Positions 12,934-50,866 of a DNA stretch of 64,000 nucleotides are shown here, one piece after another. Origin of the DNA: Patescibacteria group bacterium. Lineage in GTDB: Bacteria > Patescibacteriota > Patescibacteriia > Magasanikbacterales > GWA2-37-8. The notes beneath the pieces were generated by a model that saw only the letters and a program-made list of their open reading frames with translations, did no database searches and had not been told where the DNA came from. A program made the position numbers and the translations under genes. How positions within the stretch are numbered: the first letter of the stretch is position 1; each line of letters starts with the position of its first letter. The DNA lies in NCBI GenBank assembly GCA_004321885.1, contig SCQK01000013.1:96001-160000 (forward strand), written 5' to 3'.

Positions 12934-13644
12934 ATGAAGATCGTCATTGTAATTCCCACATACAACGAAAGGAAGAACATCTCCAAACTAACCGAGAAAA
13001 TTTTTGCTTTGCGAATTGACGGGCTGGAAATGATCGTAGTGGACGACGGCTCGCCCGACGGAACCGGCGACAAGGTAAAAAAATTGGGCGAACGATTTCC
13101 GGTGACCCTGCTGGCGCGCGAAAAAAAACGCGGACTCGGTTCGGCTTACCTCGCCGGATTCAAGAAAGCCCTGGAAATGGGGGCTGATTTTATTTTTGAA
13201 ATGGACGCGGATTTGTCGCACGACCCCGACGACGTGCCAAGATTACTGGAGCCGTGCCTGGACGGCGCCGATTTGGCCATCGGCTCGCGCCGGGTGGCCG
13301 GCGGAAAGATTATCGGATGGGGCTGGGCGCGCAAATTCATGAGCGCCGGAGCCATGCGGCTGTCGCGCCTGATACTTCAATTAAAAAACAAAGACGTTAC
13401 CTCCGGCTTCAGATGTTGGCGCCGCGAAGCGCTTTTAAGAATTGACTTGGACAAAATCAAAAGCAACGGCTACGCTTTTCAGGAAGAAATACTCTGGCGC
13501 GCCCAGCAGGCGGGCCTGAAAATTGCCGAGGTACCGGTAATTTTTGTTGACCGCGAAGAAGGCAAATCCAAACTGGGCTGGAGAGAGGTATTGGAATTTT
13601 TTAAAGTAATGCTGTCATTGCGAGCGAAGCGAAGCAATCCCTAA
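12934..13644 (+). CDS. GT2 family dolichyl/polyprenyl-phosphate mannose (or glucose) synthase-like glycosyltransferase
   Basis: VVIPTYNE, VVDDGSPDGT, DAD motif, Dpm1-like fold; the C-terminal 11 aa are read from a family-B repeat. Confidence 0.8.
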   Translation: MKIVIVIPTYNERKNISKLTEKIFALRIDGLEMIVVDDGSPDGTGDKVKKLGERFPVTLLAREKKRGLGSAYLAGFKKALEMGADFIFEMDADLSHDPDDVPRLLEPCLDGADLAIGSRRVAGGKIIGWGWARKFMSAGAMRLSRLILQLKNKDVTSGFRCWRREALLRIDLDKIKSNGYAFQEEILWRAQQAGLKIAEVPVIFVDREEGKSKLGWREVLEFFKVMLSLRAKRSNP

Positions 13645-13693
13645 CACAAATGATTGGGATTGCTTCGGCGCTATGCGCCGCCTCGCAATGACA
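13613..13693. repeat. family-B nested palindrome GTCATTGCGAGCG..AAGCAATCCC..GGGATTGCTTCG..CTCGCAATGAC
   Basis: other copies 13859-13940, 19249-19298 (half), 21854-21937, 63753-63846. Confidence 0.85.
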
Positions 13694-14648
13694 ATAACAA
13701 CTCGTCAAAGGTTTTCACCCTCATTAATTTCATTTTTAATTCCTTCACTCCGGGAACGCCTTTGAAATAATAGGCGAGGTGTTTGCGAAAAGTTACCATA
13801 CTTCCTTCGCCGTAGCGCTCTAAATGCAGTTGCGCATGGCGGAGAATGACGTTTAAAATGTCATCGCGAGGAGACTGCAGGCCGACGAAGCAATCCCCTG
13901 CTTTATCAGATGGGGTTGCTTCGCTACGCTCGCAATGACAACGGAAAATCCACGGGTTGCCAAGCGCCCCGCGGCCTATCATCACGCCGTCCGCGCCAGT
14001 AATTTCCAAACACCGGCGGATGTCTTCGGACGAATTTATATCACCATTGGCCAGCGCCGGAATCTTTAACAACTTTTTCACGCGGCCAATCATTTCCCAG
14101 TTCGCTTTGCCGCTGTAGCCCTGCGTCTTGGTGCGGCCGTGAATCGTGAGTAAATCAGCGCCGGCCGCTTCCAATTTAGGCGCGAACTCCAAAATTTCTT
14201 CCTCTCTCCCCCACCCCAGCCGCGTCTTCACGGAAATCGGCGCGCCCAAATCCGCTTTTTTTAATTCTGCCACGATTTTTACCGCTCGCTCGTGGTCTTT
14301 CATCAAAGCCGCGCCCGAATTGACTTTGCCGGTTAATTTCGGCACCGGACAGCCCATATTAATGTCAATCCCGTCGGGTTTAAATTTTTCAACTAAAATC
14401 TCCGCGGCCTGACGCACTTGTTTGGGCTCGGCGCCGAACAATTGCAAAACAATCGGCCTTTCAATCGCGTCAAACTCGCACATTTTCAAGGTCTTGGCGT
14501 TGCCGCGGCAAATCGCCTCGGCGCTCACCATTTCCCGAAAAATCACGAAATCCGGGCCTGAAACCTCGCGGCAAACGCGACAAAACGGCCCGTCGGTCAT
14601 ATCGGCCATGGGCGCGAGCGCGACAATAGATCGTTCATCCATCCACAT
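13671..14648 (-). CDS. dusB: tRNA-dihydrouridine synthase (start moved to the internal Met; ORF-track start 14876)
   Basis: LAPMADMTDGPFCRVCRE, GIDINMGCP, TIHGRT, MIGRGALGNPWIF; contains an in-frame repeat at 13859-13940, and the C-terminus runs into a repeat at 13613-13693. Confidence 0.8.
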   Translation of the reverse strand: MWMDERSIVALAPMADMTDGPFCRVCREVSGPDFVIFREMVSAEAICRGNAKTLKMCEFDAIERPIVLQLFGAEPKQVRQAAEILVEKFKPDGIDINMGCPVPKLTGKVNSGAALMKDHERAVKIVAELKKADLGAPISVKTRLGWGREEEILEFAPKLEAAGADLLTIHGRTKTQGYSGKANWEMIGRVKKLLKIPALANGDINSSEDIRRCLEITGADGVMIGRGALGNPWIFRCHCERSEATPSDKAGDCFVGLQSPRDDILNVILRHAQLHLERYGEGSMVTFRKHLAYYFKGVPGVKELKMKLMRVKTFDELLLSLRGGA

Positions 14649-21333: not shown

Positions 21334-21377
21334 AATTATTATGTCATTCCGGGCTTGACCCGGAATCTATTTCCGTG

Positions 21378-21450
21378 TGGACGGTGCAGGACTCGGACCT
21401 GCGGCCCTTGCGATGTAAACGCAATGCTCTACCAACTGAGCTAACCGTCC
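21378..21450 (-). tRNA. tRNA-Val (anticodon TAC), no encoded CCA
   Basis: GGACGGTTAGCTCAGTTGGTAGAGC..TTGCG-TTTACAT-CGCAA..GCAGG-TCCGAGT-CCTGC-ACCGTCC-A. Confidence 0.8.
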
Positions 21451-21537
21451 GTCCGCATCTCGGCTATGATTTTACCCCTTTTTGCCTTTTTTGGCAAGAA
21501 CCATTGTCATTCCTGCGCAAGTAGGAATCCACAATCA

Positions 21538-21840
21538 TTACGATTCGTCCAAAATTATCTTTTCTTTGAATCCTCCCCTGTCTTCGGCCTTGGTGGCGCG
21601 TATTTTTTCCAGCTCAACGGCGTCATAACCCTTGAAATCGCGCATGGAATTGAGAACTTCGTAAAGGTCGCCCAAATCATGTGGCGATTCCGAGGAAAAA
21701 AACTCTCCCAGCTCCTCCAGCAGTTTTTCCTTCAACTTTTTCCAGTATTCCTCACTGCCGGCGATATGGTACACCGCCTGTCCGCCTTTGGCTTTGATGA
21801 TTTCGGGAATCTTGTCCCGCACGAGTTTATTGTATTTCAT
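21538..21840 (-). CDS. all-alpha NTP pyrophosphohydrolase (MazG/HisE-like) family protein
   Basis: MKYNKLVRDKIPEII N-terminus and E-rich helices typical of small MazG-like NTP-PPases. Confidence 0.5.
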   Translation of the reverse strand: MKYNKLVRDKIPEIIKAKGGQAVYHIAGSEEYWKKLKEKLLEELGEFFSSESPHDLGDLYEVLNSMRDFKGYDAVELEKIRATKAEDRGGFKEKIILDES

Positions 21841-21967
21841 ATAATCTAATCGCTGTCATTGCGAGCGAGCCACAAGCGAGCGCGGCAATCCCTTCCGTGT
21901 TTGGGATTGCTTCGCCCCTTCGGGGCTCGCAATGACATTTAAGTTTCAAAATAATTTTTACCTGTTT

Positions 21968-22195
21968 TTATCGCTTCCAACATGAAACGAACTTCAAATT
22001 TCCTATTTCAACGCCCAGTTCCTCCGTCGCTTCTCGTTTCACCGTTTCCATGGGGCTTTCTCCAAACTCCACGTGTCCGCCGATGGAACCATAACAACCG
22101 TCCGCGTGCGCGCCCTTGCGTTTGGCGAGCAAGGTCTTGCCATCTTTTATTATCACCGCCCCGGCGCCCACTTTGATTATTTTATCTTCCGACAT
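21968..22195 (-). CDS. NUDIX hydrolase, apparently truncated after the Nudix box by a family-B repeat
   Basis: Nudix box GGHVEFGESPMETVKREATEELG; the ORF stops about 25 aa after the box, directly abutting repeat 21854-21937. Confidence 0.5.
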   Translation of the reverse strand: MSEDKIIKVGAGAVIIKDGKTLLAKRKGAHADGCYGSIGGHVEFGESPMETVKREATEELGVEIGNLKFVSCWKR

Positions 22196-22257
22196 AATTG
22201 AAACTTCGAACTTCTGATTATTTGACTTAAAAATATGATTATGGTAGGGTGTTTTTG

Positions 22258-22505
22258 CCGTCAGAGAGTGCTCGAAGGCCCTACTCCGGAAGACGTCCCG
22301 GAGCCAGGAGGAGAAGCCGTCCCACCATTCCATGCCGCCGGCCACAGTCCGGCCGCGAGGTGCGCGCGCTCCGCTTCCAAAGGGGCATCTCGAAAACTGT
22401 GCCGGGGTGGTTTGGCGTCTTTGCGCCAGATTGCACCCCACATGGACAGCGTCCTCCTACGGGGAGGACTATGGTTGCTTAGCGCCATCAACCCTCTCTG
22501 ACGGC
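22258..22505 (+). other. GC-rich roughly 250-nt element closed by a perfect 12-bp inverted repeat (GCCGTCAGAGAG ... CTCTCTGACGGC) followed by a T-run; candidate structured ncRNA or MITE
   Basis: about 65% GC against an AT-richer background; terminal stem plus T9; internal hairpin CTCCGG-AAGACGTC-CCGGAG. Confidence 0.3.
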
Positions 22506-22514
22506 GCTTTTTTT

Positions 22515-22733
22515 TTATTTGTATTTCTTCAACAACTCATCTAATTTTTTCATGATTGGCGCGCGCCAGTCGTCAATCATTTGCGTCCTGATAAATTTTA
22601 CCATTTTTTTGTCTTCCGCCGTCATCTTTTTACTCTCAAGTTCGTAAATTTTTCCCAAAATAAAATAATCTCTATCTTCCTTCAAAACATAACGTTTTTT
22701 GTCAATCGGACGAATTTTTGGTAATTTGTTCAT
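22515..22733 (-). CDS. hypothetical small basic protein (start moved to the internal Met; upstream ORF-track residues derive from a family-C repeat)
   Basis: MNKLPKIRPIDKKRYVLKEDRDYF...; no known domain. Confidence 0.4.
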   Translation of the reverse strand: MNKLPKIRPIDKKRYVLKEDRDYFILGKIYELESKKMTAEDKKMVKFIRTQMIDDWRAPIMKKLDELLKKYK

Positions 22734-22760
22734 ACTACACAATTCGTTGTGGCAACAATC

Positions 22761-22846
22761 GTCATCCTGAACTTGTTTCAGGATCCCCACTGTCCAATTC
22801 GCCGACTCGCTCGATCGGAGATGCCGAAACAAGTTCGGCATGACAG
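22761..22846. repeat. family-C composite hairpins GTCATCCTGAACTTGTTTCAGGAT ... ATGCCGAAACAAGTTCGGCATGAC
   Basis: related copies 23161-23203 (ATGCTGAAATAAATTCAGCAT) and 46141-46157 (CCTGAAACAAGTTCAGG). Confidence 0.7.
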
Positions 22847-22865
22847 TGACGCGGCTGGAAACTTA

Positions 22866-23159
22866 TCACTCCCATTCGTCGCTCAAGTCTTTCAAAGTGG
22901 GATTAAGTCCTTTTACTAAATTTATTTTCCACTGACGATGCCAATTTTTGATTTGTTTCTCTCTGTTAATTGCGTCACGTGGATCCAAAAAAACTTCGTA
23001 ATAAACTAACTTTTTCAGATTATACTGTTTTGTAAATCCCTCATTGATTCCATTTTTATGTTCTTCAAGCCGACGTTCTAGATTGTTCGTTATACCTACA
23101 TATAAAACCGTGTTGATGATGTTTGTTAAAATATACACATAAAATGTTTTCCCCTCCAT
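22866..23159 (-). CDS. GIY-YIG nuclease superfamily protein (UPF0213-like)
   Basis: YVYIL...LYVGITNNLERRLEEH matches the GIY-YIG motif. Confidence 0.85.
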   Translation of the reverse strand: MEGKTFYVYILTNIINTVLYVGITNNLERRLEEHKNGINEGFTKQYNLKKLVYYEVFLDPRDAINREKQIKNWHRQWKINLVKGLNPTLKDLSDEWE

Positions 23160-23201
23160 ACGATTTGCGATTGGAGATGCTGAAATAAATTCAGCATGAC
23201 A

Positions 23202-30022: not shown

Positions 30023-30051
30023 TAAAAACAGTCCCGACTTAGTCGGGACTG
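30023..30051 (-). terminator. intrinsic terminator after tRNA-Thr(GGU) (CAGTCCCGA-CTAAG-TCGGGACTG-TTTTT)
   Basis: perfect 9-bp stem plus a U-run immediately 3' of the tRNA. Confidence 0.5.
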
Positions 30052-30061
30052 TTTTGGCGCG

Positions 30062-30323
30062 AGCCGATGAGCGGATTTGAACCGCTGACCACCTCCTTCG
30101 CTTATACTTTATATTGCTATAAAGACTAGACTGTATCTTTGGCTTATCCTTTACCGGACTTAGCCACCCTTGTCAGTCGTTCGCCCGCGATTAGCGGGAC
30201 GGTCTTGTCCCAATTTATTTAGGGATATTAACCGTTATTCGGGATTCACCACGATGTTTCCATCGTGATGGGCGAGGCTTGCGGCTCACCATGGAGGTGC
30301 TCTACCAACTGAGCTACATCGGC
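30062..30323 (-). tRNA. tRNA-Thr (anticodon GGT) interrupted between nt 36/37 by a 189-nt intron (exons 30288-30323 and 30062-30098)
   Basis: joined exons give GCCGATGTAGCTCAGTTGGTAGAGCACCTCCATGGT|AAGGAGGTGGTCAGCGGTTCAAATCCGCTCATCGGCT, a canonical cloverleaf very close to E. coli tRNA-Thr(GGU). Confidence 0.75.
30099..30287 (-). ncRNA. group I-like self-splicing intron in the tRNA-Thr(GGU) anticodon loop
   Basis: 5' exon ends in U, intron ends in G; P1 can form with a U-G wobble (AUGGU|GAG with CUCGCC(C)AU); P2 hairpin CACGAUG-GAAA-CAUCGUG; internal ACAAGACCGUC resembles the Tetrahymena P3/P4 segment GCAAGACCGUC; ACAGUCUAGUC is a P7-like element. Confidence 0.6.
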
Positions 30324-30328
30324 ATTTT

Positions 30329-30988
30329 CTAATTTTTTTTATTTTCCAAAATCCTCATTAATTCATCTCTCATTTTTTTATTATGGTAATAAACTGTTAA
30401 AACTCCATGTCTACTTTTTTCGCGATAAGTACCTTTTCTAACAGACATTGTTATCGTGCTTTTGTAAAATTGATTTTTATTTACCTTTATTTGCCCCTTC
30501 CAAAACCTTAGCGCTTCAGTCACTGAAATGTCATTGAATAACTGAAGGCTAAACTTAAGGTCTTTTCTTCTAATGGAAAAAAATTTAACTAAAAAGTCAA
30601 TAAATTTCTTGACCAATCTTGGGTCAGTATTTCCCAACCTAACTGTGCATTTATCCGCTTTTGTTCCCTCCCCCCAGTATAACCCAAGTCCAAAACCATA
30701 TAAAATTCCCTCTTTTAATGTATGTGGATACTTTATGACAAATGGATCACCGTTTGGGTTATTTTTTTTGTAAATAGCTTCACTGATAGATCTACACGTA
30801 ATCGAATATTTTTCCATCCAATAACGTATTTTATTTACTGAACATTCGAAAATATTGGCAATTTCTTGTGCCGACTTTCCCTGATTTTGATATAATTTTT
30901 GCAAAACACCTTTGCTTATCATATCACAAATTATATCATAGCCGACTGAATAGTACAAGTAACCCCAAGTAGATAATATGGTTGTCAA
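30329..30988 (-). CDS. HTH-containing protein with a degenerate LAGLIDADG-like motif; putative free-standing homing endonuclease between two intron-containing tRNA genes (TTG start)
   Basis: N-terminal HTH (SAQEIANIFECSVNKIRYWMEKY); ILYGFGLGLYWGEGTKADKCTVRLGNTD resembles the single-motif LAGLIDADG core; the ORF opens inside the tRNA-Tyr 3' exon and ends 6 nt before tRNA-Thr. Confidence 0.4.
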   Translation of the reverse strand: MTTILSTWGYLYYSVGYDIICDMISKGVLQKLYQNQGKSAQEIANIFECSVNKIRYWMEKYSITCRSISEAIYKKNNPNGDPFVIKYPHTLKEGILYGFGLGLYWGEGTKADKCTVRLGNTDPRLVKKFIDFLVKFFSIRRKDLKFSLQLFNDISVTEALRFWKGQIKVNKNQFYKSTITMSVRKGTYREKSRHGVLTVYYHNKKMRDELMRILENKKN

Positions 30989-30997
30989 TGAACCTTG

Positions 30998-31291
30998 TGG
31001 GTGGAGTAGGATTCGAACCTACGAAGGCAGAGCCAGCAGATTTCATTTATCCAAAAGTTTCCTTCTAGCATGGACTATATCTTTATCCTATCCGCCAATC
31101 TGGCCGATAGGATACTCTGGTATCTAGTCTCTACGGCGCCCCCGACTTTGCCGGGGTTCCCACGGTATTAGCATGCCCGCCAGTTGGCGGATTTAGCTTT
31201 CACCGTTATCCCAGAGAGTTCATCCTAAAGTTACCTTTAGGAGCTGCGTTTCAACACAGTCTGCTCCAGTTGACCACTTTGGTATCCACCC
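30998..31291 (-). tRNA. tRNA-Tyr (anticodon GTA) interrupted between nt 35/36 by a 212-nt group I intron (exons 31256-31291 and 30998-31043)
   Basis: joined exons GGGTGGATACCAAAGTGGTCAACTGGAGCAGACTGT|AAATCTGCTGGCTCTGCCTTCGTAGGTTCGAATCCTACTCCACCCA: type-II tRNA with a long variable arm and an anticodon loop CUGUAAA identical to E. coli tRNA-Tyr. Confidence 0.8.
31044..31255 (-). ncRNA. group I intron (IC3-like, Azoarcus/cyanobacterial tRNA-intron type) in the tRNA-Tyr anticodon loop
   Basis: contains GUAGAGACUAGA, identical to the P7/P3 core of the Azoarcus tRNA-Ile intron; P3-like GCUAAAUCCGCC; 5' exon ends in U and the intron ends in G. Confidence 0.7.
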
Positions 31292-31310: not shown

Positions 31311-31382
31311 AGCCGCCTCAGGGATTCGGACCCTGGACCTACGGTTTACAAAACCGTTGCTCTACCGCTGAGCTAAGGCGGC
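31311..31382 (-). tRNA. tRNA-Thr (anticodon TGT)
   Basis: GCCGCCT-TA-GCTC-AGCGGTA-GAGC-A-ACGGT-TTTGTAA-ACCGT-AGGTC-CAGGG-TCCGAAT-CCCTG-AGGCGGC-T. Confidence 0.85.
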
Positions 31383-32393: not shown

Positions 32394-33194
32394 TTACTTT
32401 TCCCTCCCTTTTATAAGGGGAGGGGCAGGGAGGGGTAGAACAGCATTCTTCGCGATGTCCAGCCATGTTTCCAGCTTGGCCGAAGCGCCCCCCACCAGCA
32501 CGCCGGAAACGTTCTCGCATTTCAGGTAGCCGGCGATGTTTTCCGGCCGCACGCTGCCGCCGTACAAAATTATTACAGCAGCCGCAGGCAAAAGTTCAAC
32601 GGCCAATTTATCTATAAAATTGTGCGCCACGGCGCAGGCCTCCGTATCATCGCAAGCGTTGCCGGTGCCAATGGCCCATACCGGTTCGTAGGCGATAAAA
32701 AGCGGCCTTTCGTCTTCTTTCGGCCAGGCCAAATTTTGCAAAGCGGCCCGAAGTTGGATTTCCAAAACTTCCTCTGTCTTACCCTCTTCTCTTTCCTTGG
32801 CTGTCTCGCCCACACACAGCACGGGCGTGAGTCCGGCTGCCAAAATCGCTTCCAATTTTTGCCTCACTTCATGATTGCTTTCGCCAAATTGATGCCGGCG
32901 CTCGGAGTGGCCGACCAGCGCGTATTCGCAACCGGCCGCCTGAAACATCTGGGCCGAAACTTCGCCGGTGTAGCCGCCCTTGTCCACCCAATAAACGTTT
33001 TGCGCGCCCACGCCGATGCCGGCGTCGCGCAGTACCTGGCCAGCGCTGTATAAAGAAAGCGCGCTTGGAAAAACAGTCATTTTCACGTTCGTCGGAAATT
33101 TTTCCGCCTCGCCGGCCAAAGCGTTGGCCAAAATATTGCTCTCGTCAAAATCCAAATACATTTTCCAGTTGGCGAAAAGATAAATTTGTTTCAT
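32394..33194 (-). CDS. tpiA: triosephosphate isomerase
   Basis: FANWKMY, VGHSERR, AYEPVWAIGTG, GGS...N; the C-terminal tail PLPAPPLIKGREK is encoded by a family-D repeat. Confidence 0.9.
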   Translation of the reverse strand: MKQIYLFANWKMYLDFDESNILANALAGEAEKFPTNVKMTVFPSALSLYSAGQVLRDAGIGVGAQNVYWVDKGGYTGEVSAQMFQAAGCEYALVGHSERRHQFGESNHEVRQKLEAILAAGLTPVLCVGETAKEREEGKTEEVLEIQLRAALQNLAWPKEDERPLFIAYEPVWAIGTGNACDDTEACAVAHNFIDKLAVELLPAAAVIILYGGSVRPENIAGYLKCENVSGVLVGGASAKLETWLDIAKNAVLPLPAPPLIKGREK

Positions 33195-34579
33195 ACGAGT
33201 AATTTCAAAATTTCTTCTTTTGATTTCGGCCCGATTACCGCCAACCGCATTCGCTTCCAATCAAAAAATCTTCGTGCCGCGCCACGCACCTGCCCGGCCG
33301 TAACGCGCTCTATTTTTTCCAACTGCTGTTCCGGCGTCTCTATTTTATCAGCGAACCAGTGCTGGCGCGCGAACCACTCGGCCACGGCGCTGGAATTTTC
33401 CATGGATAGCGCCATGCGGCCCGAAATGTTTGTTTTGGCGTCGTCTAATTCTTTTTTGCTGATGCCTTTATCCGCAATTTTTTTCAGTTCGCTTTTAATT
33501 ACCGAAAGCGCTTCGCCCAGCCGGTTGGAATCCAAACCAGCGTTAATGGTGATAACGCCGGTTTCGTTGTGGCTGACCCCGCCGGCGTGAATCATATAGG
33601 CCAATCCCCTTTTCTCGCGCACCTCCACGAACAAACGTGAACTCATGCCGGAGCCGAGCACGGTAAGCAATACCGCGTTCGCGTACCTGATAGGATCGTT
33701 GTAGGCGAAACCCGCGAACCCCATCACAACGTGCGACTGATCTATTTTTCTCTGTTCAACGCTAACCCGTTTTTCCAACGGCAATTCGCCCGCCGGCCAG
33801 CTGAATTTTATAAAATTTTCTTTGTTGAAATACCCCTCCTTCCCGCTCCCCTTTATAAGGGGAGGGAAACTATCGGCAGTTCCTCCCCCTTGATAAGGGG
33901 GAGGCTCGCCACCACACCAAATGCTTTGGTGTGGTGGCGAGGAGGGGGTATTCGCGAAATACTTCGCGGCCAACTTTTTTATTTTTTCCCGCGGCGCGTT
34001 GCCCGACACCGCCAGCGCCATATTCGCGGGCGTGTAAGCATTTTTGTAATACGCGAACAGCTCGTCCCGCGTAATATTTTTTACTGTCTCGGCCGTGCCG
34101 GCCACATCCCGCCCCAGTGGATTGCCGCCAAACACCGTGCGGTCAAAAACCAGCTCCACGGCCATGCTCGGATTATCTTCATACATCTTTATTTCTTCGG
34201 CAATCACTCCCCGCTCTTTGGTGATTTCTTTTTCGTCAAAAGTGGAATCAAAGAGCATGTCCGCCAAAATATCAAAAGCCAATTCCACCCGCCGGCCGTC
34301 TATTTTAATATAATAGCCGGTATAATCCTTGTAGGTAAAGGCGTTATAATCCGCGCCCACCGCGTCCAACTCGCGCGAAATATGCTGGGCCGTGGGACGT
34401 TTTTTTGTTCCTTTGAACATCAGATGCTCCACAAAGTGCGAAGCCCCGGAAATTTTCGCTGTCTCATAGCGCGAACCCACCGGCAATAAAACCATCACCG
34501 TGACGGCTTTGGTGCCGCCCGTCGGCGCCGTGATTAGCGACAAGCCATTTTTTAATTTTGATAGCCGATGCATAATCAC
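33191..34579 (-). CDS. M16 family zinc metallopeptidase (insulinase-like)
   Basis: HxxEH inverzincin motif HFVEHLMFKGT; two-domain M16 fold; carries a roughly 35-aa in-frame repeat insertion (33832-33952). Confidence 0.8.
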   Translation of the reverse strand: MIMHRLSKLKNGLSLITAPTGGTKAVTVMVLLPVGSRYETAKISGASHFVEHLMFKGTKKRPTAQHISRELDAVGADYNAFTYKDYTGYYIKIDGRRVELAFDILADMLFDSTFDEKEITKERGVIAEEIKMYEDNPSMAVELVFDRTVFGGNPLGRDVAGTAETVKNITRDELFAYYKNAYTPANMALAVSGNAPREKIKKLAAKYFANTPSSPPHQSIWCGGEPPPYQGGGTADSFPPLIKGSGKEGYFNKENFIKFSWPAGELPLEKRVSVEQRKIDQSHVVMGFAGFAYNDPIRYANAVLLTVLGSGMSSRLFVEVREKRGLAYMIHAGGVSHNETGVITINAGLDSNRLGEALSVIKSELKKIADKGISKKELDDAKTNISGRMALSMENSSAVAEWFARQHWFADKIETPEQQLEKIERVTAGQVRGAARRFFDWKRMRLAVIGPKSKEEILKLLV

Positions 34580-50602: not shown

Positions 50603-50679
50603 ACTATGAATATAATCTCATTCGCTCAGAACTGAATTAATAAATTAATTCAGTTCGCTCGCTCATTTCGATTATAAAC

Positions 50680-50704
50680 AAAAAATCTGTGTTTCCACAG
50701 ACTA
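50680..50704 (-). promoter_or_regulatory. candidate attenuator hairpin plus U-run inside the long rplJ leader
   Basis: minus-strand TCTGTGG-AAAC-ACAGA-TTTTTT about 80 nt upstream of the rplJ ATG; the leader is about 235 nt. Confidence 0.35.
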
Positions 50705-50837
50705 ATCCCGCCAAAGGCGGGCAAGAGCGCAAATCGACCTATACTGTCATTCCGGCTTCCGAGCCGGAATCCAGTTCTTTTTTGCACCTCGGCAGGTAAT
50801 TAAGCCCTTTCGGACACCTGCTGTCTATGGTGACAAT

Positions 50838-50866
50838 AATATACAGGAAGCATAAAAAAATGTCAA
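50838..50866 (-). promoter_or_regulatory. sigma70-like promoter TTGACA-17-TATATT for the rplJL operon
   Basis: consensus -35, 17-nt spacer, near-consensus -10. Confidence 0.4.

Follow-up and report, generated by a model that had tools for sequence, protein, structure and literature searches.

We tentatively read a GC-rich element of about 250 bp, here called E1, as a stand-alone sRNA gene on the plus strand of an accessory, hypervariable secA–secDF island; judged from its sequence, this may well be what it is. E1 was found in what we call the window, the whole 64,000-nt (64-kb) stretch of Magasanikbacterales DNA that was analysed. The plus-strand RNA reading is the best one available because a GC-rich non-coding island, a promoter-like site, a closing helix and a U-tail terminator come together there. 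A preliminary description had also proposed a structured plus-strand RNA; these four features partly support it, whilst homologues and covariation lend it no support. Overall, the evidence for E1 as an RNA unit is moderate.

The gap between secA and secDF (window 21334–23201, 1.87 kb) contains a GIY-YIG gene, orf72, E1, a NUDIX fragment, a REP-like palindrome, a MazG-like gene and tRNA-Val. As previously described, E1 itself sits between a truncated NUDIX gene (NUDIX') and a small minus-strand ORF. The latter is orf72 (locus tag EPN28_03535), which encodes a 72-aa protein (22515–22733, minus strand) publicly annotated as hypothetical. All of the genes in the gap are on the secA (minus) strand except E1, the only unit that runs against the direction secA, GIY-YIG, orf72, NUDIX', MazG-like, tRNA-Val, secDF.

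E1 is bounded by a perfect 12-bp inverted repeat, with GCCGTCAGAGAG at 22257–22268 and its complement CTCTCTGACGGC at 22494–22505; the 5' arm begins one nucleotide before position 22258, where it had been placed earlier. The arms enclose 225 bp and are the sole two copies of these sequences within the 64-kb window. The GC content of 22257–22505 is 64.5%, in agreement with the 65% or so first estimated, compared with 50% for the window and 33–48% for the flanks. The nine-T run and the internal hairpin CTCCGG-AAGACGTC-CCGGAG of the preliminary description were likewise recovered, at 22508–22516 and 22284–22303, respectively. The features that we assign to E1 are as follows.

22222–22250, plus strand: sigma-70-like promoter candidate, weak, as read from the sequence.
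22256–22268, plus strand: 5' arm of the closing helix P1 (U GCCGUCAGAGAG); perfect 12-bp inverted repeat, predicted helix of 13 bp, pair probability 0.96.
22272–22393, plus strand: domain A, predicted by minimum-free-energy and partition-function folding, with helix probabilities mostly 0.8–0.99.
22397–22449, plus strand: domain B, a predicted long hairpin with a CUUU loop.
22451–22469, plus strand: hairpin C, GUCCUCCU-ACG-GGGAGGAC, predicted with a probability of 0.97.
22471–22488, plus strand: hairpin D (AUGGU..GCCAU), predicted.
22494–22506, plus strand: 3' arm of the closing helix P1 (CUCUCUGACGGC G), from the inverted repeat and the predicted fold.
22481–22516, plus strand: putative intrinsic terminator, hairpin AGCGCCAUCA / UGACGGCGCU followed by U9.

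In the predicted fold, an RNA of about 250 nt is ~71% base-paired. The closing helix P1 (22256–22268 with 22494–22506) has 13 bp, including one U-G pair, at a partition-function pair probability of 0.96, and closes a four-way junction made up of domains A and B and hairpins C and D. Domain A is predicted to have a basal helix (UCGA/UCGA and GCCCU/GGGGC) that encloses both the hairpin CUCCGG-AAGACGUC-CCGGAG (22284–22303) and a long irregular arm (22307–22378) capped by GCCGG/CCGGC. Domain B would be formed by the helices CUGU/ACAG, GGGGUG/CACCCC and GUUUGGCGU/GCGCCAGAU. The sequence ACUGUG (22396–22401) is complementary to the loop CACAGU (22343–22348), which could allow a pseudoknot or an alternative pairing. 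Hairpin D and the local terminator hairpin are alternatives, since the former shares bases with the 5' arm of the latter. The predicted helices of E1 contain few or no mismatches, and their pair probabilities are high.

To gauge how far these features exceed chance, we considered the inverted repeat and the fold separately. Perfect 12-bp inverted repeats at a spacing of 50–400 nt were found at four loci in the window, two of which are REP-like palindromes, compared with a mean of 3 pairs in shuffled sequences. However, the closing inverted repeat of E1 coincides exactly with both boundaries of the GC island and abuts U9. There are 90 runs of seven or more T on the two strands, and that of E1 alone abuts a long-range perfect complement of >8 bp; given a random-position rate of ~7e-4, about 0.06 such cases would be expected over the 90 runs, and the conjunction of repeat and T-run is put at about 0.03–0.06 overall. 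With dinucleotide shuffles as the reference, the fold of the whole of E1 had a z of -4.1 to -4.5, against a background for the window of -0.8 +/- 1.5. Three of the 81 sampled segments were at least as extreme, and these contain a tRNA or REP-like palindromes. With the closing helix removed, the interior of E1 is unremarkable (z = -1.9), i.e. the closing helix provides most of the fold signal. Nine protein-coding GC-rich cassettes taken from the same gap in relatives had weaker values than E1 (z from +0.35 to -2.5), whilst the values for two RNA-like cassettes, E2 and E3 (see below), were similar to that of E1 (z from -2.5 to -5.2). The E1 signal is thus partly beyond chance.

These figures bear directly on whether E1 is instead a non-functional relic, i.e. 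a decayed fragment of a horizontally acquired GC-rich cassette in which the terminator was kept and the inverted repeat and hairpins are fortuitous for such a composition. We consider this rather unlikely. It is nonetheless plausible because the neighbourhood is decaying, as seen from the truncated NUDIX gene and the REP-like palindromes. An interior z of only -1.9, an expectation of about three 12-bp inverted repeats per window, a weak -10 and the lack of conservation in any search would all suit a relic, as would the GC-rich cassettes, including small-ORF ones, that occupy the gap in relatives. Against this, the coincidence of the inverted repeat with both GC boundaries and the U-tract would rarely arise by accident, the predicted helices are regular and have high pair probabilities, and neither a leftover coding signal nor any protein similarity was found in any frame.

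The REP-like palindromes of the window are of three types: GTCATTGCGAGC...GCTCGCAATGAC; GTCATCCTGAAC.../...GTTCGGCATGAC; and CCCCTCC...GGAGGGG hairpins. Their sites are 13613–13695, 13860–13945 and 21854–21937; 22770–22850 and 23170–23200; and 33830–33945. The last of these clusters falls within a 462-aa ORF (33191–34579, minus strand) and has the strongest fold z in the window (-6.0).

Upstream of E1 on the plus strand there is a promoter-like site, with a -35 TTGACT (22222–22227), a 17-nt spacer and TAGGGT (22245–22250). The latter matches the -10 consensus at three of six positions, and a consensus scan called no promoter there. From this spacing, transcription is predicted to start on or near G22257, which is also the first base of the closing helix. 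At the other end, the hairpin AGCGCCAUCA / UGACGGCGCU (-12.9 kcal/mol, one mismatch, 8-nt loop) is followed by U9 (22508–22516), so that E1 has the G+C-rich hairpin and U-tract characteristic of a Rho-independent sRNA terminator. A simple terminator scan did not list it, probably owing to the mismatch in the stem. The loop and 3' arm of the terminator hairpin comprise the same bases as the 3' arm of P1, and the 13-bp P1 ends 1 nt ahead of U9. Two nucleotides of the U-run are shared with the stop codon of orf72, which is convergent with E1.

The fold itself is uninformative as to strand: the predicted energies are equally favourable (-121.7 kcal/mol for plus and -124.9 kcal/mol for minus), and a comparison of the G-U pair counts and energies of the two strands did not distinguish between them. 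Since the strands fold equally well, our strand assignment relies on the promoter-like site and on the canonical terminator, which is present on the plus strand only.

Function on the minus strand would make E1 a structured intercistronic element, or the 5' leader of the NUDIX gene, within a long secA-to-secDF operon transcript, where it might serve as a processing or stabilising structure. The flanking genes all lie on the minus strand, this strand of E1 folds as stably as the plus strand (z = -4.2), and orf72 has no minus-strand terminator, making read-through likely. Nevertheless, we regard this explanation as decidedly improbable: neither a terminator nor an expression platform follows E1 in this direction, the A9 run and hairpin would lie on the 5' side, where no role is known for them, only a fragment of a NUDIX gene lies downstream, and the promoter-like and terminator signals suit the plus strand. 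We also discarded a riboswitch or other cis-acting leader: past the terminator the plus strand has only spurious antisense ORFs, and the minus strand lacks an expression platform and leads into the truncated NUDIX gene.

If E1 is a plus-strand sRNA gene, we infer the following scheme for its transcription, fold and function. Transcription, driven by TTGACT-17-TAGGGT, would run from about G22257 to the U9 tract. Either of the two terminator pairings puts a stable stem against the U-tract, and termination is therefore expected to be constitutive. The product would be an RNA of ~250 nt with its ends locked in the 13-bp G+C-rich helix that closes the four-way junction (two long arms and two hairpins); in the finished RNA both ends would be buried, as in stable RNAs. 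Within the island, its role would probably be that of a stable RNA that either binds protein or works as an antisense RNA. As to the second of these modes, E1 opposes the direction of the genes in the gap, and is therefore fully complementary to a read-through mRNA of orf72-NUDIX'. The promoter candidate is also back-to-back with the start of NUDIX'. Alternatively, E1 could work by cis-antisense or transcription interference on read-through from orf72 into NUDIX', tRNA-Val and secDF.

To determine whether E1 might be coding, we used codon-usage log-odds trained on the 27 long ORFs of the window. All six frames of E1 are largely open, as expected at its GC content. They scored -0.13 to -0.39 per codon, compared with +0.27 +/- 0.11 for native in-frame windows of at least 57% GC and -0.35 +/- 0.28 for off-frame controls. 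All six frames thus score like non-coding sequence, and the plus-strand ORFs are spurious, as had been supposed at the outset. A Pfam profile search of E1 gave no match. An 82-aa minus-strand frame matched, among 1.84 billion representative proteins, only TAN33045.1, the MAG's own protein. This is a public 125-aa 'NUDIX hydrolase' on the minus strand (window 21968–22345, start GTG at 22345), and the first 50 of its residues stem from a start placed spuriously far upstream, inside E1. The NUDIX ORF proper (21968–22195, minus) covers only positions 4–70 of the 134 in the Pfam profile, and because the match stops at position 70 the gene is truncated at its 3' end. The public annotation can accordingly be corrected: the TAN33045.1 gene is really a 3'-truncated NUDIX fragment.

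A small protein could in principle be made from a 70-aa ORF (22332–22544) or an 88-aa ORF (22235–22501), both on the plus strand. Besides the open frames, there is an AGGAGG upstream of the ATG at 22332, and relatives hold small-protein cassettes in the secA–secDF gap. However, the AGGAGG is 20 nt from this ATG, the 70-aa ORF runs through the terminator and U-tract, and the log-odds are negative in every frame. The 88-aa ORF, the one of the two that was searched, had no homologue among 5.8 billion proteins. Translation of E1 is therefore an extremely unlikely explanation.

We compared E1 with known RNA families, as the preliminary description had suggested. Rfam 15, whose families include 6S, SRP, RNase P, tmRNA, riboswitches, group I/II introns and ribozymes, gave no match at the gathering thresholds and, in the interval 22150–22600 at E<=10, only chance matches to the terminator region, the best at 21 bits against a threshold of 39. 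ARAGORN found neither a tRNA nor a tmRNA in E1. The same Rfam search detected a group I intron at 31051–31263 and, at a relaxed threshold, a second at ~30100–30300. Because these tRNA-associated introns were detected, the search is not blind to divergent CPR RNAs. We also rejected a group I intron as a reading of E1 itself, as the Intron_gpI model that finds both of these had no match on it.

The same searches revealed other RNA features of the window. The intron at 31051–31263 (minus; 61.7 bits) adjoins tRNA-Thr (31311–31382) and presumably lies within a further tRNA gene, the exons of which were not called. A split tRNA gene at ~30047–30325 (minus), missed by ARAGORN, has a ~190-nt insert in the anticodon loop between a 5' half GCCGATGTAGCTCAGTTGGTAGAGCACCTCC and a 3' half GGAGGTGGTCAGCGGTTCAAATCCGCTCATCGGC; there is a weak Rfam group I intron match at 30107–30454 (26.9 bits, E = 2e-4). 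A ribosomal protein L10 leader lies at 50671–50848 (minus; 53.6 bits), as expected upstream of rplJ.

As a candidate terminator-bounded structured sRNA, E1 would be of a familiar kind. The suggestion in the preliminary description that it may be 6S-like was not supported. Like 6S RNA (SsrS, RF00013), E1 would be stand-alone, stable and highly paired, ending in a long closing helix and then a U-tail. However, it is 250 nt rather than ~185 nt; 6S RNA is a rod with a central bubble, whereas E1 is predicted to form a four-way junction; and the E1 locus is accessory and hypervariable and E1 is not conserved in relatives. A divergent housekeeping RNA, 6S or similar, that is beyond the reach of the Rfam models in a CPR lineage is on these grounds very unlikely. 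The paired ends and U-tail, a size within a factor of 1.4 of 6S RNA and the availability of a rod-like fold (-101.6 kcal/mol, z = -3.0) are what such an RNA might show. Yet the branched fold (-121.7 kcal/mol) is ~20 kcal/mol better than the best rod, Rfam is silent even at E<=10, and a housekeeping RNA should be conserved, whilst none of the 172 loci examined from relatives (see below) carries E1.

Type I antitoxin sRNAs can be convergent with their toxin gene, as for RatA/txpA and SR4/bsrG. E1 would similarly be a structured RNA of the ~200-nt class that is convergent with a small ORF and shares a common terminator region with it. However, type I toxins are short and hydrophobic, whereas orf72 encodes a hydrophilic, lysine-rich protein of 72 aa; barring read-through of the mRNA, E1 and orf72 share only 2 nt; and an orf72 homologue on locus L088 has no E1-like neighbour. 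We rejected this assignment because orf72 is hydrophilic. Retron msr-msd RNAs, structured and ~200 nt in length, have their two ends joined by the long-range inverted repeats a1/a2, and the ends of E1 would likewise be paired by such repeats. A retron was rejected since no reverse-transcriptase ORF is present on either strand between 19 and 26 kb in the window and the genes downstream are on the minus strand only. A DGR template was discarded as there is no similar repeat in the window, and a TIGR or CRISPR-like array as there are no tandem units.

To look for homologues of E1, we assembled 172 loci (2.1 Mb): 80 secA loci each from species-representative genomes and from metagenomes, 10 obtained through exact-protein look-ups of SecA relatives, one through orf72 and one through a viral scan. 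Neither blastn, nhmmer and tblastx nor a single-sequence covariance model of E1 (R1) found a homologue in these loci. There was also no copy of E1 in phage and plasmid collections searched with blastn. When three 19–22-mers from the interior of E1 were matched exactly against viral contigs, a single chance match resulted, inside a GC-rich coding region. By its SecA, the genome belongs to Candidatus Magasanikbacteria (CPR). The window's SecA is a singleton MAG protein, and its closest relative among 5.8 billion proteins is only 76% identical. For orf72 there are two homologues, and L088, the one contig of these with readable DNA, shows no E1-like neighbour. As far as the searched sequence extends, E1 is thus an orphan.

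The same results bear on whether the 12-bp terminal inverted repeats make E1 an element at the level of DNA, namely a MITE or an invertible segment (inverton). E1 has in common with MITEs a length of ~250 bp, the lack of a coding function and perfect 12-bp terminal repeats, here flanking 225 bp, and the preliminary description had raised this alternative. The test by its termini went against it: E1 is single-copy within the 64 kb, it lacks a target-site duplication (...GTTTTT borders it on the left and GCTTTT... on the right), and scans of metagenome and viral contigs for both arms returned zero matches, so that the arms were not found together elsewhere. An inverton is further disfavoured by the absence of a recombinase gene nearby and of any AT-rich promoter inside the segment that inversion could switch. 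Either kind of DNA element is most improbable.

The order of secA and secDF is syntenic across the group, and in the 55 loci that contain the two genes (L003–L080) the gap between them can be as short as 45 nt or as long as 4.6 kb. In relatives it holds different genes, and antisense-oriented cassettes with a consensus promoter and terminator are frequent. Small-protein cassettes were seen in L020, L063, L081, L170, L171, L052, L023, L058, L050, L038 and L018. The types of cassette include small Cys-rich proteins and GC-rich Pro-rich ORFs, and there are also house-cleaning genes (NUDIX, MazG-like and DUF1653). The secA–secDF gap therefore looks like an insertion hot spot.

Other cassettes in this gap look like RNA genes, among them E2 and E3. 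E2 is present in L035 (13413–13610, minus) and L011 (11468–11650, minus), with a length of ~190 nt and an nhmmer E of ~1e-17 between the two copies. It has six pairs with compensatory changes, a strong consensus promoter and an intrinsic terminator, and no match in Rfam; from this comparison, E2 is a conserved structured RNA in two Magasanikbacteria. Its conserved stretch reads GCTCCCGANGTARATCGGTC. Like E1, E2 lies antisense in the secA–secDF gap and is GC-rich relative to its flanks. It carries a promoter and a terminator, to which the weak promoter candidate and the putative terminator of E1 correspond, and the copy in L035 is oriented divergently to a NUDIX gene in just the way that E1 is. 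It differs from E1 in its architecture, in its strong consensus promoters and in its six compensatory pairs, comparative support of a kind that E1 does not have. No relationship between the two was detectable in sequence or structure model: nhmmer and the E2 covariance model (R2) miss the window, and R1 misses E2. E3 (L011 11216–11420, minus) is a further promoter-plus-terminator, RNA-like cassette in tandem with E2, with a fold z of -5.2, no Rfam match and no homologue among the loci.

Going further, E1 could be the first member seen of an undescribed class of four-way-junction RNAs closed by an end-to-end helix. Together with the unrelated E2 and E3 it would then belong to an unnoticed set of RNA cassettes, inserted antisense with their own promoter and terminator in the secA–secDF hot spot of Magasanikbacteria. 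We regard this as speculative and quite unlikely; if true, it would define an accessory 'RNA cassette' locus in minimal CPR genomes.

In a literature search we found no described CPR sRNA that fits E1 and no paper on the non-coding RNAs of CPR/Patescibacteria, which appear to be little explored. E1 is a single-sequence candidate and its value is as a lead. A GC-rich stretch of 250 nt that is non-coding stands out in genomes as tiny as those of the CPR. Should the transcription and folding of E1 be as predicted, a lineage that is known from metagenomes only would gain an orphan structured RNA, and the secA–secDF gap would be marked as a place where small promoter-plus-terminator cassettes, encoding both RNAs and small proteins, are swapped.
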